A stretch of DNA of 64,000 nt from contig OZ223270.1 of the NCBI GenBank assembly GCA_965140585.1, positions 192,001 through 256,000 on the forward strand, given 5' to 3'. The position numbers were made by a program, and so were the translations under genes. This document shows positions 6,274 to 22,482 of the stretch, in pieces; the stretch's first letter is position 1, and the number at the start of each line of letters is the position of its first letter. The notes beneath the pieces were generated by a model, which was given only the letters and a program-made list of their open reading frames with translations, did not search any database and had not been told where the DNA came from. Origin of the DNA: Spirochaetia bacterium. GTDB taxonomy: Bacteria > Spirochaetota > Spirochaetia > UBA9216.

Positions 6274-6711
6274 ATGAATCCGCTTATAAATATATCCGAG
6301 GGAGCATCACTGGCATTTCACAGCCTGGCCCTTATAGCAAGAGAGGCTCCGCAGAGACTGAACACCGGCTACATAGCAAAAAATCTGGGTGCATCCGAAG
6401 CCCATCTGGCAAAGGTTTTCCAGAGGCTTAGCAAGGCCGGGGTAGTATCCTCGGTCAGGGGTCCATCCGGCGGATTCATACTGTCAAAAGATCCCCGGGA
6501 AATCAGCTTTCTTAATATCTACGAGATAATGGAATCAAAAATAGATAATCAGGGCTGCCCGCTTGGAAGGTCGGAGTGCTCATTCAGCAGCTGCATCTTT
6601 ACGGCAAAAATGAGCTCAGTCTCACAGGAAATCTACAACATACTGGAAACTATAAACCTGGCTGAATTCAGCGGAAGCGAACGCGTAAGCAGGGGTACGG
6701 AGAACAAATGA
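6274..6711 (+). CDS. Rrf2-family transcriptional regulator, 3-Cys (probably Fe-S binding)
   Basis: 'HLAKVFQRL.KAG.V.SVRGPSGGF.L' winged HTH; C-x5-C-x4-C (CPLGRSECSFSSC). Confidence 0.92.
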   Translation: MNPLINISEGASLAFHSLALIAREAPQRLNTGYIAKNLGASEAHLAKVFQRLSKAGVVSSVRGPSGGFILSKDPREISFLNIYEIMESKIDNQGCPLGRSECSFSSCIFTAKMSSVSQEIYNILETINLAEFSGSERVSRGTENK

Positions 6712-7943
6712 ACTATTTCGAAGAAAACGACAAACTTTACAGCATAGTCGACAGATATCCGGAGACCATTCCGGTTTTTGTGAATAACGGATTTCCACAG
6801 ATGGATGACGAGGCTCAAAGAGAAAAATTCGCAAAAACCATATCACTCAAGCACGCGCTGATGCTGAAGCAGACAGATCTGCAGTCCTTCTCTGCCCTGC
6901 TGAATGAGGCAATCAAACGGAAAGCCGAAAGCGGAATTGACGGAATAAATACCGAAAAGGTAACAGAACCAGATATAAGACTGACAGGACTACTGCCCTG
7001 CCCAGTAAGGATTCCGCTGCTGGAACAGTTCAGCCGTTTTGCCGAAAGTTTCGAAAAAGATGCCGGACTTCAGATTGCCCATGAACTGAAAGCTGCTTCG
7101 ATGGGGCTGGACTGGGTTGAAAAAAATATAAGCGGTTTAAGCAGCCATAAAAACCTGCCCGACATCTTCATATCAGCCGGCTTCGATCTTTTCTTTGACA
7201 GAAATAAAATAGGCAGATACAAGGAGCAGGGAGTTTTCAGGGATTTAAGCGGATATGAAAAATACAACGAACTGTTTAACGGAATTGATCTGAAAGACCC
7301 CCGCGGGCACTATTCCATAATCAGTGCTGTACCGGCAGTATTTCTTGTAAACACAAATGAACTTGGAGATACCCCTGAACCGAAAAGCTGGAAAGACATC
7401 CTCAGCCCCGAATTTGAAAACAGGGTATCGATCCCTATCGGCGACTTCGATCTGTTCAACGCGATACTGATTAACATCCACCGAAATTACGGCGAAGAAG
7501 GCGTATTCAGACTGGGAAAGAGCCTTCTTGAATCAATGCACCCCTCACAGATGGTTAAAAGCAATACCAAAAAGATAAACAGACCTGCTGTAACGATAAT
7601 GCCGTTTTTCTTCACAAAGACCGTAAAAGAGGGAGGGCCGATGAAAGCGGTTTGGCCCGAGGATGGAGCCATATTAAGCCCGATCTTCATGCTTACCAAA
7701 GCCGCATCTGCGGAAAAGATTCAGCCGGTAGTTGATTTCTTTGCCTCAAAGGAAGTGGGGGAAACTCTGGCCCACAACGGGCTTTTCCCCAGTACGAGAG
7801 AGGATGTGGATAACCGGATAGATCATTCAAACACATTTATGTGGCCGGGATGGGACTACATCTATTCAAATGATATCGCAGAGCTGATCAGCCGCTGCGA
7901 AGAAGTATTCAATTCAGCTGTAGAAACAGCCGCAGGAGTATAA
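6708..7943 (+). CDS. ABC-type substrate-binding-fold protein with N-terminal DUF1858-like domain and no signal peptide
   Basis: 'LYSIVDRYPETIPVFVNNGF' (DUF1858-like); iron/polyamine SBP motifs 'PKSWKDIL.PEF' and 'VWPEDGA'; 'LLPCPVR'. Confidence 0.8.
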   Translation: MNYFEENDKLYSIVDRYPETIPVFVNNGFPQMDDEAQREKFAKTISLKHALMLKQTDLQSFSALLNEAIKRKAESGIDGINTEKVTEPDIRLTGLLPCPVRIPLLEQFSRFAESFEKDAGLQIAHELKAASMGLDWVEKNISGLSSHKNLPDIFISAGFDLFFDRNKIGRYKEQGVFRDLSGYEKYNELFNGIDLKDPRGHYSIISAVPAVFLVNTNELGDTPEPKSWKDILSPEFENRVSIPIGDFDLFNAILINIHRNYGEEGVFRLGKSLLESMHPSQMVKSNTKKINRPAVTIMPFFFTKTVKEGGPMKAVWPEDGAILSPIFMLTKAASAEKIQPVVDFFASKEVGETLAHNGLFPSTREDVDNRIDHSNTFMWPGWDYIYSNDIAELISRCEEVFNSAVETAAGV

Positions 7944-15814: not shown

Positions 15815-17026
15815 ATGTCACAGAAGCAGCATGTAATCTGTTTTAACGGAGGAAGCTCCTCTATCAAAATATCAGTAAAAGAAGTAAACGGCGCAGATGT
15901 CGAGACAATTGTCGATTTCAACTGCCAGGGCCTGGGAATGGACCATGGTTATATCGATGTTAAAACCGCTGACGGTAAAGAAACAATCGACACTCCAATG
16001 AAGGATCACAAGACAGCCCTGACAGCAATTACCAGTCTCATTTCAGAGAGATACCCGGAACTCAACATCGTAGCAGCCGGACACAGGGTTGTTCACGGTG
16101 GACCGGAATTTACCGAAACGGCACTTATTGATGAAAAGGTCATGAAATCGATTGAAGAATATTCATCACTTGCGCCCCTGCACAATCCGGCAAACCTTCA
16201 GATAATCGAGGCAGCGCTTGCCGATTCTGTATTCGGCAAGGTTCCGAATGCTGCAATATTCGATACCCAGTTCCATGCCGAGATGCCCAGGTACGTAAGA
16301 CAGTACGGCGTTCCAAGCCACTGGCTTGATGACTACAAGATACAGCGCTACGGATTCCACGGAGCGTCATATACATACATCAGCGGCAGATTCGCCGAAC
16401 TTAACGGCCTGAGCGCTGAAGAAACAAACTGCGTTATTGCGCATCTTGGAAACGGATGCTCGATTGCAAAGGTAGAAGGCGGAAAGGGAACCGATACAAG
16501 TATGGGAACAACCCCTCTCGAAGGCCTTATCATGGGAACAAGAAGCGGCGACATAGATCCGGGCGCTCTTGAACTTATGGCCAACAACCTCAACACCGAC
16601 ATCAAGGAAATTATCCGCATACTCAACAAGGAATCAGGACTTCTGGGTCTCTACAACAAGAACGGACTCAAGGATATGAACAAGATAAGGATGGAAGCTG
16701 AAAAAGGCGATATTGAAGCAGAGGTTACCATTCAGACTGTTGCATACCGTGTTGCGAAATACTTTTCCGCATACATCGGAACAATGGAAAATCCGAAAGG
16801 AATAGTATTTACCGGAGGAATCGGTGAAAATGAAGGATACTTCAGAAAGAAGGTAATGGGCTTCATGAAACTCTACAACTGGAAGATTGATGAAAACACA
16901 ATCATGACCAGAAACGAAGAAGTTATTGTAGCCGAAAGCGGTCTTATCCCCGGACTCAAGGCCTGGGTAATTCCGACTGACGAAGAAAAGGTCTTCGCAC
17001 TTGAAGCTATGAAATTTGCGAAATAA
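15815..17026 (+). CDS. ackA: Acetate (short-chain fatty acid) kinase
   Basis: N.GSSS.K, GHRVVHGG, APLHN, FDT.FH, RYGFHG, HLGNG, PLEGL.MGTRSG. Confidence 0.93.
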   Translation: MSQKQHVICFNGGSSSIKISVKEVNGADVETIVDFNCQGLGMDHGYIDVKTADGKETIDTPMKDHKTALTAITSLISERYPELNIVAAGHRVVHGGPEFTETALIDEKVMKSIEEYSSLAPLHNPANLQIIEAALADSVFGKVPNAAIFDTQFHAEMPRYVRQYGVPSHWLDDYKIQRYGFHGASYTYISGRFAELNGLSAEETNCVIAHLGNGCSIAKVEGGKGTDTSMGTTPLEGLIMGTRSGDIDPGALELMANNLNTDIKEIIRILNKESGLLGLYNKNGLKDMNKIRMEAEKGDIEAEVTIQTVAYRVAKYFSAYIGTMENPKGIVFTGGIGENEGYFRKKVMGFMKLYNWKIDENTIMTRNEEVIVAESGLIPGLKAWVIPTDEEKVFALEAMKFAK

Positions 17027-17045
17027 TTCAACTCGATAATGTCTG

Positions 17046-17084
17046 AAAAAAGCCGGGTAGATAAAATTATCAGCCCGGCTTTTT
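17046..17084. terminator. Bidirectional terminator between ackA and the ALDH gene
   Basis: AAAAAAGCCGGG...CCCGGCTTTTT. Confidence 0.85.
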
Positions 17085-17101: not shown

Positions 17102-18550
17102 TTATTCGGTAGTGATTGCGATGTTCTTGGTAACAAGATATTCGCTGACAGCTTCAAGTGATAGCTCTTTTCCAAAGCCGGACTGCTTGAATCCGCCGTG
17201 AGGAGCCTCGGAAGCTACAATAAGATGATTATTAACCCATACAGTTCCGAACTCCAGCTTATGTGAAACCCTCATCGCACGGGCAACATCCTTTGTCCAC
17301 ACTGATGCAGCCAACCCGTATACAACATCATTTCCAAGCCTGACAGCCTCGGCTTCATCCTTGAAAGTATTAATTGTGAGAACAGGACCGAAAACTTCCT
17401 CCTGGATAATCTCTGAATCCTGCTTTGCATCTGCAATAACTGTCGGTGCATAGAAGTATCCGCTTCCGAGTTCCGGCATTTTCCGGCCGCCAATAACTAC
17501 ACGGGCACCTGCAGATTTTGCACGCTCTACAAAGCCTGAAACACGCTCAAGCTGCTTTGAGCTTATAAGCGGGCCGACTTCTGTTTCAGGATTAAGCGGA
17601 TCACCGATTTTCACAGCCTCTGCTGCGGCAGTGACAGCCTCCAGCAGCTGCTTATACCGGCTTTCATGAACGTAGATTCTGGTTGCCGCGGTACAATCCT
17701 GACCGGAGTTAAAGGTTCCGCCGAGAACTGCGGTTTCGGCAACCCTTGCGATATCGGCATCTTCAAAAACAACAACAGGAGCTTTTCCGCCCAGCTCCAT
17801 ATGAGTCCGCTTCATCGTTCCGGATGCAAGCTCCATAATTCTCCGTCCGGTTCCGGTTGATCCGGTAAGGCTGACAAGGCGTACTGAAGGGTGTGTTGCC
17901 AGGACTTCCGCCTTTGCGCCGCGCCCGGTTACTATATTAAGAACACCATCGGGAAGGCCTGCCTCCTTTGCAATCTCTCCGAGACGAAGAGTGGACAGGG
18001 GTGTATTTGAAGCAGGCTTCATTATTATGGTGCATCCTGCCGCGAGGGCCGGGCCGATTTTCCAGGCGGCCATCTGAAATGGGTAGTTCCAGGGAGTTAT
18101 CTGGCCGACAACTCCGACAGGCTCATGCCTGAATACATGCGTCATCCCCTTAAGATACTGTCCGGCGGCGATACCGTGCGTATCTCTGGCAAGGGTTGCA
18201 TAATACCTGAAGTTGTCGATTGAATCATGAATATCAACTGCCTTGCATTGATATTCCAGCGGTTTGCCGGTATTTTCTGTTTCGAGTCCGGCAATTTCAT
18301 CGGAGTATTTTTCGATAAGATCTGCCATTTTCCAGATTATTCCGGAACGTTCGGCCGGTGTGCTCTCGCTCCAGGGCCCTTCATAGAAGGCTCTTTCCGC
18401 GGCGGCAACAGCTGATTCAAAATCGGAGGTTACAGCATCGGGGACGCTCTGAAATTTTTGACCAGTGGCAGGGTTGACAACATCAATCCTGTCCTTTCCT
18501 CTGGAGGGCACCCAGCCTCCATTAATCCACAGTTCATAACTGTCTTTCAT
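17102..18550 (-). CDS. NAD-dependent aldehyde dehydrogenase (aminobutyraldehyde/betaine-aldehyde DH-like)
   Basis: PWNYP, TGSTGTG, MELGGKAP, FNSGQDCTA (catalytic Cys), EEVFGP, PHGGFKQSGFG. Confidence 0.93.
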   Translation of the reverse strand: MKDSYELWINGGWVPSRGKDRIDVVNPATGQKFQSVPDAVTSDFESAVAAAERAFYEGPWSESTPAERSGIIWKMADLIEKYSDEIAGLETENTGKPLEYQCKAVDIHDSIDNFRYYATLARDTHGIAAGQYLKGMTHVFRHEPVGVVGQITPWNYPFQMAAWKIGPALAAGCTIIMKPASNTPLSTLRLGEIAKEAGLPDGVLNIVTGRGAKAEVLATHPSVRLVSLTGSTGTGRRIMELASGTMKRTHMELGGKAPVVVFEDADIARVAETAVLGGTFNSGQDCTAATRIYVHESRYKQLLEAVTAAAEAVKIGDPLNPETEVGPLISSKQLERVSGFVERAKSAGARVVIGGRKMPELGSGYFYAPTVIADAKQDSEIIQEEVFGPVLTINTFKDEAEAVRLGNDVVYGLAASVWTKDVARAMRVSHKLEFGTVWVNNHLIVASEAPHGGFKQSGFGKELSLEAVSEYLVTKNIAITTE

Positions 18551-18552
18551 TT

Positions 18553-18658
18553 TTATCTCCTTTCCAGTCGGGAGGCATTGCTGTTTCCGGCAACACCCTG
18601 TCGGTCAGGACTCCATGTGAGATGAGACTTCATTTAGGAGCGCAGGACTCGAAGATTT
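18553..18658 (-). ncRNA. Moco RNA motif (molybdenum/tungsten cofactor riboswitch), apparently lacking P3
   Basis: Minus strand AUCUUCGAGUC...CUCCUAAAUG...CAUGGAG...GACCGACAGGGUGUUGCCGGAAACAGCAAUGCCUCCCGACUGGAAAGGAGAU. P1 AUCUUC/GGAGAU covers the SD; CCUAA/AUGG tetraloop receptor; GAAA-capped P4; the GCCUCCCG...GGAAAGG tail matches my recollection of the moaA leader. Confidence 0.82.
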
Positions 18659-18753
18659 GCTATAAATTTATTGGATTTGCATGCATCCGGTCAACACAGA
18701 AATCGGAGAGATAGCGAGAAATCATATTTTTATCAGGAAAACAGGATATTATG

Positions 18754-19474
18754 CTAGGGTGTATATTTATAAAGCTGCCCAGGAGTTACACCGAAACCTG
18801 CCCATTCCCTTACAAAATATGCCGCTCCATCACAGACAATGAACTGACTGTTTCGATAATCCATTCCGTAACCCTCGGGAAAAGAAGCTTTTACTGACCA
18901 TTCTGTGTTCCCGGGAGTCCAGGCATAAAGCTTCTGATTTTCATCCAGAACATATCCGGTTCCATCAATAGAAAAAACCTCGACCGCACCACCCGGCATC
19001 ATCAGGGAGATTAGGAATTGAAACCCATCCGTTTGTTGCAGGATCATACTCGGCGAACTCATGCCAGGATTCAGTTTCTATATCATCGTCCCAGGCTTCA
19101 CCTTTTACTGCAGGATAGTGCCCCCCTCCAGTGTATATCTTATCGCCTATAGCAAAAAAAGCCGGGTCTCTGTAATTTGACAATGCATCTACAGTCATGG
19201 TTTCTTCCAGGGTTTTGTATATCCACATATCTATAAGCGGATCACTTTCATTCTCACCAAGACCGTAATAAATCTCATCTCCATTAACAAAAAGTACAGC
19301 ACTTGAACGTTTAGAGCCGGGGAATGTTGTTTTCTGTTCCCAGAAATCATGATCCAGAGGGTTATCACGATCCACAGAAACGATCACATCGTTTACTGCA
19401 GAAGGATCGAAAAAGTCACAGGAAACAAAAACCATTGCAAGAATTCCGGCAGCAAAGAATATTTTATTTTTCAT
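18754..19474 (-). pseudogene. Kelch-repeat lipoprotein, frameshifted near 18990
   Basis: MKNKIFF...FVSC lipobox (ATG 19474); Kelch motifs 'FPGSKRS', 'IGDKIYTGGG', 'EYDPATNGW'; continues in a second frame as 'GAVEVFSIDGTGYV'. Confidence 0.7.
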
Positions 19475-20160
19475 CAAGAGCCTCCTGCAGACGTACAATT
19501 TCATTCTCCATACGCGATTCACGCGACGCGAGCCCCCAGGTTATTCCTGTAACAACAGCGGCAGGTATCGCAACATGTAGTGAAATATCCCTTACCGTCC
19601 TCATTAAACGGATATTATCTTCAGCCTCGGTAATCTGCGCTCCAAGGCTTTCAACTTCAGCATCATCAGTTGAAGCGGAATACTCCTGATCAAGAGTTTC
19701 CAGCGCATCGGCTGCAACGTCAAGCTCGCCGCGGTAAAACCATCCGGAGCCGTAACATACAGCTCTCCGGAACTGAAAAGAGAAATTCCGGTATCAGGAT
19801 TGTAATCAAGCCCGGCAAGCCTGTAGGCAACCTCAAAAACCTTATCCTGCATTTCATTTAGGGATTCAAAGGTTATGGCCTCGGCACTGATAGTCCTGCT
19901 GGAACCAACGTCAATCAGTCTTATCGCCAGATTGTAGATAGTCCCAATTGAAGACAGTTCTCCTAAAACAATATTTTCAGCGGCCAGAAGCTTTCCAACT
20001 TCAATTGCGCATGAATCATCAGTACAGCCGGACAATGAAAAAGCCTGAGCCTCAAGAATAGCTTTCATATCGTTATAACTCAGGACAGTAAAAAGATCCG
20101 TCTTAAACAGAGCCGTCTCCACAATACTGCGGCAGGCTGTTGCATCAGCTTTGAAGATAT
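19464..20160 (-). pseudogene. Decayed CsgG/DUF2380-like surface protein gene
   Basis: 'ILEAQAFSLSGCTDDSCAIEVGKLL' domain with no start or signal peptide (in-frame TAA just upstream). Frame breaks after 'APDGFT' into 'ELDVAADALETLDQEY...' and again into 'MENEIVRLQEALDEK*'. Confidence 0.65.
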
Positions 20161-20266: not shown

Positions 20267-21454
20267 ATGAGCAGGAAGATCTTTGATTATTACAGAGAGG
20301 AGGCCGGGGCTCTGAAGGCCGGAGGCCTGTACAAACAGGAACGCACTATCTGTTCTCCCCAGCAGGCTGAGATTACCCTTGAAGACGGCCGGAAGGTAAT
20401 CAATTTCTGCGCCAATAACTACCTGGGACTTTCAGACAGCCCGGAACTGATAGCAGCGGCCAAAGAGGGGCTTGAACAATACGGTTACGGACTGTCATCG
20501 GTAAGGTTTATCTGCGGCACACAGTCTATTCATCTGGAACTTGAAAAACAGTTAAGCAGCTTTCTCGGAACCCAAAGCACAATACTCTACTCATCCTGCT
20601 TCGATGCTAACGGCGGACTCTTTGAAACAATTCTCGGGGAAGAGGATGTAATCATCTCGGACGCTTTAAACCATGCCAGCATCATTGACGGAGTCAGGCT
20701 TTCAAAGGCGCGGAGAATGCGCTATGCCAATAACAATATGGCAGAGCTTGAAAACTGCCTTAAAGAAGCCGCCGCCTGCCGCTTCCGACTCATAGCCACC
20801 GACGGGGTATTTTCAATGGACGGTATAATTGCCGATCTTGCCGGAATCTGCGAACTTGCTGACCGCTATGATGCCATAGTCATGGTCGATGATTCTCATG
20901 CTGTAGGATTTATCGGTGAGAACGGTACCGGAACGCCTGAATACTGCGGCGTCCGGGACCGCATTGATATAGTAACCGGAACACTTGGAAAGGCTCTGGG
21001 CGGTGCTTCCGGCGGTTATACTTCAGGGCGCAAAGAAATTATTGACTGGCTGCGTCAGCGCTCGCGCCCATATCTTTTCTCAAATTCACTGGCACCGGTT
21101 ATGGCATATACAGCACTAAAAACCCTGGAGATTCTGAGCGGAAGCGGTGAACTCCGTACCGCCCTTAATGACAATACGAAAATATTCCGTGAAGGCCTGA
21201 AATCAGCCGGATTTACAATAGTGGAAGGTGTACACCCGATTGTTCCGTTGATGCTTTACGATGCCCCGCTTGCCGTCAAAATGGCGAACCTTCTGCTTGA
21301 ACGCGGGATCTATGCAGTGGGTTTCAGCTACCCGGTAGTACCTGAAGGCCAGGCAAGGATTCGTTTTCAGATGTCGGCGGCACACAACACAGACCAGGTA
21401 CAGAAGGCGGTAGAAACCATTACTGCCGCCGGAAAAGAACTGGGAGTCATTTAG
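20267..21454 (+). CDS. kbl: Glycine C-acetyltransferase (2-amino-3-ketobutyrate CoA ligase)
   Basis: [49 protein letters not shown]. Confidence 0.96.
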
Positions 21455-21456
21455 CC

Positions 21457-22482
21457 ATGAAAGCGCTGGCAAAGACAAAATCAGAACCAGGTCTGTGGAT
21501 GATAGATTCACCTGTTCCGGAATACGGGCCTAACGATCTGCTGATACAGATAAAGAGTACCGCTATCTGCGGTACTGATGTCCATATCTACAACTGGGAT
21601 GAGTGGTCTGCAAAGACAATTCCTGTACCGATGATTACCGGCCATGAGTTTGTCGGAGTCGTTGAAAAGATCGGTAGCGAAGTCGACGGATTTCATATCG
21701 GCGACAGGGTTACCGGAGAGGGGCATATTACCTGCGGCCACTGTCGAAACTGCCGGGCAGGTAAACGTCATCTCTGCCGAAATACAAGTGGTATCGGGGT
21801 TAACCGGACCGGCTGCTTTGCAGAGTATCTGGTTCTACCGGCATACAACTCATTTAAGCTTGATGATTACATCCCCGACCGGATCGCAGCCATCTTTGAT
21901 CCCCTTGGAAACGCGGTTCATACCGCGCTCGCATATGATTTAGTCGGAGAAGATGTTCTAATCACCGGAGCAGGCCCGATCGGAATAATGGCTGCTGCCG
22001 TTGCACGGCACGCCGGAGCCCGCTATATTATCATCACAGACGTTAACGACTACCGCCTGCAGCTTGCCCGGGATTTCGGCGTCACAAAAACTGTTAATAC
22101 CACCAGGGAAAACCTTCCGGATGTAATGAGTGAACTTCACATGCTTGAAGGCTTTGATGTCGGGCTTGAGATGTCCGGAAACACGGCAGCACAACGCCAG
22201 ATGTTTTCTCTTATGAATAACGGGGGGCGCGTGGCAATGCTCGGACTGCCTTCCGGCCAAAGTGAAATAGACTGGAGTGAAATAATATTCAAGGGACTCA
22301 CCCTAAAGGGCATCTACGGCCGCGAGATGTTTGAGACCTGGTACAAGATGGCGGCGATGGTCAGAACCGGCCTTGAGATTGCCCCGATAATCACTCACGA
22401 ACTGCCGGTAGATAATTTTCTGGAAGGATTCGAGATCATGCGCACAGGCCGGGCCGGCAAGGTTCTGCTTCACTGGGACTGA
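21457..22482 (+). CDS. tdh: L-threonine 3-dehydrogenase
   Basis: [49 protein letters not shown]. Confidence 0.96.

Follow-up and report, generated by a model that had tools for sequence, protein, structure and literature searches.

The aldehyde dehydrogenase locus

The window analysed here is a stretch of 64,000 nucleotides (C7:192001-256000) from the genome of a Spirochaetia bacterium (G000; 4.85 Mb on 10 contigs), and the subject of this report is a locus on its minus strand in which the gene for an NAD(P)-dependent aldehyde dehydrogenase (ALDH; 17102-18550) is preceded by a match to the Moco RNA family RF01055 (18541-18666), a riboswitch class linked to the molybdenum and tungsten pterin cofactors (Moco and Tuco, respectively). 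The ALDH is a PatD/YdcW-like protein of 482 amino acids which covers positions 1-461 of 461 of the Pfam Aldedh profile (PF00171, E = 1.1e-171), in line with a first-pass annotation of the window that had named it an NAD-dependent ALDH. The best solved relatives are structures of Escherichia coli PatD/YdcW (PDB 6c43 and 1wnb, E = 1e-137), which the protein resembles in clearing the NCBIfam subfamily NF010000 (aminobutyraldehyde dehydrogenase, 639.3 bits against a cut-off of 615) but from which it differs in falling below the cut-off of the equivalog TIGR03374 (517.4 bits against 909.3). To our knowledge no riboswitch has been reported for the E. coli patD/ydcW gene. C286 of GQDC, E252 of ELGGK and N155 of PWNYP, which we take to be the catalytic residues, are invariant in alignment A3, and judged by its sequence the protein is an ordinary member of a family that uses no pterin. 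Its nearest relatives outside the spirochaete family are mostly found in Chloroflexota, with a few in Leptospira (55-63% identity), and there are four ALDH paralogs in the source genome.

The ALDH gene ends in an intrinsic terminator (17042-17084, minus strand) that consists of a hairpin of -22.5 kcal/mol (z = -4.97, none of 200 shuffled sequences being as stable) followed by a U run, and which is shared with the convergent acetate kinase gene (15815-17026, plus strand, PF00871). Since this strong terminator follows the stop codon and the next gene is convergent, the ALDH is considered to be monocistronic. Upstream of the riboswitch lie two open reading frames (ORFs) on the minus strand, 18965-19522 (185 amino acids) and 19604-20122 (172 amino acids), which match no Pfam or NCBIfam family, and an aminotransferase and a Zn-alcohol dehydrogenase are encoded at 20267-22482 (plus strand), about 2 kb from the riboswitch.

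Architecture of the leader and its expression platform

RF01055 is the only family to reach its gathering score in a cmscan search of the whole window, where it aligns over the full model (positions 1-135 of 135) with 64.8 bits against a gathering cut-off of 36 (E = 2.6e-13), and the same match is recovered in a search of the source genome itself. Such an E-value lies far outside what chance would give, and the leader is a genuine member of the family, as had been proposed in the first-pass annotation. In the covariance model (CM) alignment, P1 on the minus strand is formed by AUCUUC (18656-18651) and GGAGAU (18560-18555) and encloses P2 (about 18648-18604), in whose bulge the receptor is located (CCUAA at 18638-18634 and AUGG at 18616-18613), followed by P4 (18598-18573) with its GAAA tetraloop (18587-18584) and by P5 (about 18572-18564), which is supported by both the alignment and the fold. 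The P3 columns are deleted, which makes the leader one of the P3-less type. Tetraloop, receptor, the tail blocks GCCUCCCG and UGGAAAGGAG and the missing P3 had each been picked out from the sequence beforehand, and each is present in the alignment or the sequence of the leader. The core blocks GAG, CCUAA, AUGG, AGGG, GGAAAC, GCCUCCC and UGGAAAGGAG are kept, and two departures from the consensus in or beside P1 still pair (CUCC to CUUC, and GAGC to GAGU with GCC to ACC opposite); two non-standard pairs are located in the middle of P2. The main text of the founding study of the class splits Moco RNAs by P3 and ties the P3-less RNAs to the tungsten cofactor (Regulski et al. 2008, PMC2408646). According to that text the ligand of Moco RNAs is chemically unstable, the class was studied by genetics and not by binding assays, and the direct ligand of the P3-less form was never demonstrated in vitro.

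The expression platform (18548-18560, minus strand) consists of a Shine-Dalgarno (SD) sequence, GGAG at 18560-18557, which lies within the 3' strand of P1, a spacer of 6 nucleotides (AUAAAA) and the ATG at 18550-18548. The first-pass annotation had correctly placed P1 over the SD and described a short spacer, although its length is 6 nucleotides and not the approximately 5 that were given. The TTGACC box that it had seen just upstream is present at 18694-18689 and forms a promoter-like site (18665-18694, minus strand) together with TAAATT (18670-18665) at a spacing of 18 nucleotides. This site is a consensus match only and a weak one (9 of 12 positions), four such sites being found in the region where 2.3 are expected. 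A transcription start a few nucleotides past the site would place P1 at the extreme 5' end of the transcript. P1, P2, P4 and P5 are all present in the minimum-energy fold of 18530-18660 (-28.6 kcal/mol), and the fold of the slightly shorter 18536-18660 omits P1 at nearly equal energy (-28.1 kcal/mol), so that P1 appears marginal. A helix as weak as this could be tipped by ligand, which is more than an energy model is able to show.

In four of the six Moco RNA leaders of the source genome, those of the ALDH, of the tup-moe-moa operon and of two transporters, the SD (GGAG, or GGAAG in one) is located in the 3' strand of P1 with the start codon 5 to 7 nucleotides on, and the layout of the tup-moe-moa leader (GGAG, 6 nucleotides, AUG) is identical to that of the ALDH leader. 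For an operon of uptake and synthesis genes such as tup-moe-moa, feedback repression is the only sensible direction of control. Because the ALDH leader shares this layout it is read as a translational OFF switch, and with its SD inside P1 it would carry an OFF-type expression platform. An SD in P1 is also a feature of the E. coli moaA leader, the representative of the class that was shown to be an OFF switch, as given in the main text of PMC2408646.

Moco RNAs and pterin enzymes of the source genome

Six matches to RF01055 are found in the source genome, of which only the leader of the tup-moe-moa operon (C6:700013) has a P3, with an insert of 45 nucleotides. This operon encodes a TupA/TupB-like ABC transporter, two MoeA proteins, MoaA, MoaC, a MOSC protein and a mog-like gene product. 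The remaining copies are P3-less and precede a 4Fe-4S ferredoxin with a 599-amino-acid aldehyde:ferredoxin oxidoreductase (AOR; C9:227357, the AOR gene itself at C9:227892-229691), a Fec-type ABC transporter with a DUF364 protein (C3:56352), a 440-amino-acid protein with a WtpA-like domain followed by a further Fec-type ABC transporter (C1:58481), a solute-binding protein with an Oxidored_molyb-domain protein and a fused permease (C9:526535), and the ALDH of the window (C7:210541). Moco RNAs usually precede genes for molybdenum or tungsten (Mo/W) transport, cofactor synthesis or cofactor-using enzymes; the other five copies conform, or plausibly conform, to this pattern and the ALDH does not. 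The SD of the AOR leader is located outside P1.

The aor, tup and moa genes, whose presence the first-pass annotation had left to be checked, are found in the source genome. Alongside the TupABC-like transporter, the two moeA genes, moaA, moaC and the mog-like gene it contains 8 matches to AFOR_C, 3 to PF00384 and 3 to PF02738; the organism thus has a full Mo/W-pterin system and relies heavily on pterin cofactors. The best-scoring of the eight AOR-family matches (G000:C6:1539-2675) is located near a contig end and contains one in-frame TAA, for which either disruption of the gene or a fault of the assembly may account. The two Fec/B12-type transporter loci are C3:56352-60197 (L009), with the DUF364/DUF4213 'heavy-metal chelation' protein, and C1:58481-63049 (L008), with the WtpA-like-domain protein. 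Similar Fec-type transporters are named iron importers in the main text of a study of Eubacterium limosum (PMC11725836); for these two loci, uptake of tungsten, molybdenum or pterin seems an equally plausible function.

Conservation and recurrence of the pairing

In a sister species (G002, locus L012) the ALDH is 96% identical to that of the window. The aptamer is identical at 100 of 106 positions between the two species, compared to 178 of 251 fourfold-degenerate sites of the ALDH gene and 108 of 255 positions of the upstream spacer, and all six differences are located in P2 or its loop. The promoter-like stretch 18657-18694 is identical at 34 of 38 positions. By this comparison the aptamer is under purifying selection. 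Among 76 loci with ALDH homologs, a regular expression for the P4-P5 motif finds it upstream of the gene only in this sister ortholog.

The survey of genes downstream of Moco RNAs covered 313 different genomes (11, 151 and 151 were searched at the levels of family, class and phylum, some being shared between the samples) and 80 metagenome contigs; a search at the level of the order added no genome to the 11 of the family. Ten of these 11 contain Moco RNAs, 51 in total, whose first downstream ORFs were classified by Pfam. The first downstream gene is the solute-binding protein of the Oxidored_molyb operon in 9 of the 51 and a ferredoxin, followed each time by an AOR ortholog (68-98%), in another 9; it is TupA-like in 7, Peripla_BP_2 in 5, a 440-amino-acid SBP_bac_11 protein in 4, adenylosuccinate-lyase-like in 4, ALDH in 3, AOR directly in 2, Big_5 in 2 and without a Pfam family in 2, with single cases of a xanthine-dehydrogenase type, a radical SAM, a ModA-like and a Fer4_11 protein. 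The unit of Moco RNA, ferredoxin and AOR is kept in 9 of the 11 genomes. The Oxidored_molyb operon of the source genome (G000:C9:526535-531533, L007) and eight related loci make up the joint commonest target, and encode a 496-amino-acid solute-binding protein, a 465-amino-acid secreted Oxidored_molyb (sulfite-oxidase-type) protein and a fused double permease.

The three ALDH cases of the family are the window, its ortholog in the sister species and a genome of another genus (G010), the ALDH of which is 32% identical to that of the window. In the class sample 54 of the 151 genomes have Moco RNAs, and the 48 of them that lie outside the family hold 83, which were compared with matches to PF00171; one of the 83 directly precedes an ALDH (G049:C1:6328-6454, ALDH at 6507-7880). 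This genome belongs to another family of the same class, and the locus (L157) consists of a P3-less Moco RNA with GGAG in P1, a spacer of 8 nucleotides and the ATG of a 490-amino-acid ALDH that is 39% identical to that of the window. About 130 nucleotides past this ALDH there are another promoter and another Moco RNA, again P3-less, which precedes the gene for a protein of 916 amino acids that scores 1586 bits with NF045668 (cut-off 1100), the model for 'molybdopterin-dependent aldehyde oxidoreductase'. Two aldehyde oxidisers, one of them NAD-dependent and the other pterin-dependent, are hence direct neighbours in G049, each with a cofactor sensor of its own in front. In the phylum sample none of 19 further Moco RNAs (14 genomes) precedes an ALDH, and the survey, which had been suggested in the first-pass annotation, thus yields 4 cases in 153 Moco RNAs.

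The SD GGAG is located in P1 in all four ALDH leaders, with spacers of 6, 6, 6 and 8 nucleotides. The three distinct ALDHs that recur behind them share 32-39% identity with each other and have PatD-like, lactaldehyde-dehydrogenase-like and betaine-aldehyde-dehydrogenase-like best subfamily matches. A tree built from 53 riboswitch sequences shows most of the leaders clustering by the class of their downstream gene. The three ALDH leaders of the family form one clade (support 0.94), and the G049 ALDH leader groups with the leader of its neighbour and with that of a xanthine-dehydrogenase-family gene of G008 (support 0.73). Because the family leaders and the G049 leader fall into separate groups, ALDH genes have been recruited by this RNA at least twice independently.

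The two tandem RNAs of G049 (L157:529-5227) each have a near-consensus promoter and differ across the P2 pairing (GCCCGG/CGGGC and GUUUGU/GCAAAC), a GltD-like Fe-S flavoprotein is encoded after the molybdopterin enzyme, and a T-box-like leader is located upstream of the ALDH promoter on the opposite strand (L157:10-260, minus strand; 81.1 bits, below the gathering score of 93). The four Moco RNAs before adenylosuccinate-lyase-like genes (L097, L093, L107 and L113) all belong to genus g5 of the family, and these genes have no known link to pterin. In the fold of L097 the 3' strand of P1 serves as the 5' arm of a hairpin that ends in a U run (GGAGAGGG...CCCGCUCC UUCUUUU), and L093 folds alike. 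P1 and the terminator-like hairpin of L097 are mutually exclusive, from which an ON-type layout would follow, but the z-scores of the fold are not significant.

In metagenomes, a pattern scan biased to leaders with the SD in P1 covered 80 loci, out of at least 119 matching stretches, with 82 sites, of which 5 had less than 300 nucleotides downstream. A single one of the 82 sites, among the matches listed, has a gene of the ALDH superfamily within 1.8 kb downstream. This locus (L187:688-2517) is Firmicutes-like, with a CotS spore-coat gene upstream, and its P3-less Moco RNA, which scores 74.9 bits, and terminator-like hairpin are located 165 nucleotides ahead of the gene for a glutamate gamma-semialdehyde dehydrogenase (761 bits with TIGR01237, whose cut-off is 660).

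A proposed role in cofactor starvation

From the RNA with its architecture and conservation, the identity of the ALDH, the genomic setting and the recurrence of the pairing we infer the ligand, the regulatory direction and the physiological purpose of the ALDH riboswitch. The interpretation that we favour, with somewhat more confidence than doubt, is that of a translational OFF switch, repressed by cofactor, which places a pterin-independent aldehyde oxidiser into the cofactor-starvation regulon by a logic similar to that of metE. When cofactor is abundant, the metal-pterin would bind to the aptamer and stabilise the weak P1 of 6 base pairs, and P1, which holds the GGAG ribosome-binding site, would switch off translation of the ALDH. 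When cofactor is scarce P1 would open and the ALDH would be made, joining tungstate uptake, pterin synthesis and the AOR apo-enzyme in one starvation regulon, and aldehyde oxidation would continue without tungsten or molybdenum through the ALDH as a stand-in for tungsten-dependent aldehyde oxidisers. The first-pass annotation had proposed the ALDH as such a backup for AOR, and the computational tests that were run support this interpretation, in which the role itself is presumed.

Several observations weigh against it. The P3 rule is the sole ground on which the ALDH leader is assigned to Tuco and not to Moco, and the rule is strained by P3-less RNAs that precede enzymes of the xanthine-oxidase family, which use molybdenum (L106 in G008 and L157:2256-2377 in G049), and by the source genome, whose only P3-bearing RNA precedes the operon of a TupA-like tungstate transporter where P3 should denote molybdenum. 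The pairing is rare, both in the surveyed Spirochaetota genomes (4 of 153) and in the metagenome scan (1 of 82). For the two orthologs of the window ALDH that are nearest to it outside the genus, a search at E up to 0.1 yields no match to RF01055, either in the 249 nucleotides available upstream of the gene (G009, 74% identical, L158) or in the 172 nucleotides that reach to the end of the contig (G001, 66% identical, L159), and the riboswitch is therefore not required by this ALDH. The stability of the leader does not exceed that of shuffled sequence (z = -0.12), and the start region loses only a little of its computed accessibility, from 0.71 to 0.60, when P1 is forced; modelling with P1 free and P1 forced added little for the ALDH leader and did not discriminate between the two possible polarities of the AOR leader.

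The expected relation of the two enzymes is a further difficulty. In G007 the Moco RNA of the AOR operon has a strong terminator hairpin directly behind it (-25.2 kcal/mol, z = -4.46), and leaders with a terminator after the aptamer are read as repressive in the main text of the E. limosum study (PMC11725836). Since the AOR operon has its own Moco RNA, with this terminator following in G007, ALDH and AOR are possibly co-repressed, and both may be derepressed together on scarcity, which would describe a shared starvation regulon and not an either/or toggle. The AOR family and the ALDH share a reaction class, but the overlap of substrates between a PatD-like ALDH and the eight AORs is presumed only, and no public RNA run with the ALDH locus was found.

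Two alternatives accept the OFF switch or the working riboswitch and differ as to its purpose. AOR runs reductively in some anaerobes, converting acid to aldehyde with reduced ferredoxin, and an irreversible NAD-dependent ALDH could be silenced as long as holo-AOR can be made, so that a futile cycle is avoided. The same structural evidence applies to this explanation as to a starvation backup, and a Zn-alcohol dehydrogenase with an aminotransferase is encoded about 2 kb away, but nothing in the data points to the direction of AOR, the partner of the ALDH in G049 belongs to the xanthine-oxidase family of molybdopterin aldehyde oxidoreductases, which work oxidatively, and if cofactor represses AOR as well the two enzymes are not kept apart. 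We regard it as improbable, if still the best of the alternatives. A little less probable again is that the riboswitch is functional and the ALDH was recruited for a pathway-specific need unrelated to AOR, such as the catabolism of aminoaldehydes and polyamines, the recurrence then reflecting several unrelated needs. This would fit the origin of the three ALDHs from different subfamilies, the glutamate-semialdehyde dehydrogenase behind a P3-less Moco RNA and terminator on the Firmicutes-like contig, and the other genes without a known pterin link that follow Moco RNAs in the family (adenylosuccinate-lyase-like in four cases, Big_5 in two). Against it stands that the sole trait common to the recruited ALDH genes is aldehyde oxidation, which is also carried out by AOR and by the neighbouring molybdopterin enzyme.

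The remaining two alternatives question the ligand or the pairing itself, and both are disfavoured. A specificity variant of the aptamer whose ligand is neither Moco nor Tuco, which the first-pass annotation had allowed for, could explain why the ALDH leaders of the family form a clade of their own, and would be compatible with a P3-less class whose direct ligand, going by the main text of PMC2408646, has never been shown in vitro. The conserved core blocks are kept, though, the departures in P1 still pair, and the ALDH leader of G049 clusters with the leader of its neighbour and not with an ALDH-specific type; the idea finds no support here and is very unlikely. Just as little credence is given to an accidental juxtaposition by rearrangement without adaptive role, for which the rarity of the pairing and the orthologs at 74% and 66% identity without the RNA may be cited; it is at odds with an aptamer conserved well above neutral sites between two species, with the precise placement of the SD in P1 in four of four cases and with the independent origins of the pairing, of which there are at least two.

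Relation to known systems and significance

The leader resembles the class described in PMC2408646 in matching the full RF01055 model, in its P1, P2, P4 and P5 helices, in the GAAA tetraloop with its receptor and in the SD within P1 as in E. coli moaA, and its P3-less form is the type that the main text of that study links to users of the tungsten cofactor. It differs in its target, an NAD-dependent ALDH, which needs no pterin and falls outside the three groups of transporters, cofactor-synthesis genes and cofactor-using enzymes. A close parallel is the Tuco regulon of E. limosum, where P3-less RF01055 RNAs precede the AOR-family gene WOR1, tupABC and two Fec-type ABC transporters, the same set as in the source genome, and where the ribosome-binding site is sequestered in some leaders (PMC11725836). 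Unlike the locus of the window, that regulon as described in the main text has no cofactor-independent enzyme for the same chemistry, and the term 'aldehyde dehydrogenase' is absent from it.

In logic the closest analogue is offered by B12 riboswitches, which precede isozymes that do not depend on B12 (metE, nrd), and the proposed logic is the same in that an OFF switch sensing the cofactor represses the enzyme that works without it. The riboswitch class and the cofactor are different, and the swap in the window involves unrelated enzyme families with ferredoxin versus NAD as acceptor and a presumed equivalence of substrates. 'Isozymes of B12-dependent enzymes' form a category in Table 3 of PMC3766115. 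In the literature searched, including passages of PMC2408646, PMC11725836 and PMC3766115, no ALDH or cofactor-independent isozyme is placed behind a Moco/Tuco riboswitch, and supplementary lists may hold cases. Taken separately, neither the RNA, as a member of RF01055, nor the protein, as an ALDH, is unusual; the novelty lies in their pairing, which gives the class a new kind of target.

If the proposed role is correct, this would be the first case, within that literature, of a cofactor-independent isozyme logic for the Moco/Tuco riboswitch class. The regulon described so far consists of transport, cofactor synthesis and cofactor-using enzymes, and the ALDH would extend it to a rerouting of metabolism under cofactor scarcity, as is the case for B12. 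The leader would also provide a natural reporter, simple to assay, for Tuco as a ligand that is still unproven; it is short, belongs to a single gene and is predicted to act on translation, and therefore lends itself to constructs that probe what P3-less Moco RNAs bind. The ALDH protein is predicted to increase on starvation for tungsten or molybdenum and in moa mutants, and mutations in P1 are predicted to abolish this response.

A wider proposal, on which our confidence is evenly balanced, is that P3-less Moco RNAs run a Mo/W-sparing programme that has repeatedly captured genes of the NAD-dependent ALDH superfamily, from different subfamilies, in AOR-rich anaerobes, such that oxidation would shift from ferredoxin-linked pterin enzymes to NAD-linked enzymes when the cofactor is depleted. 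AOR-rich anaerobes may have NAD-linked fallbacks that alter the balance of ferredoxin and NADH in metabolic reconstructions.

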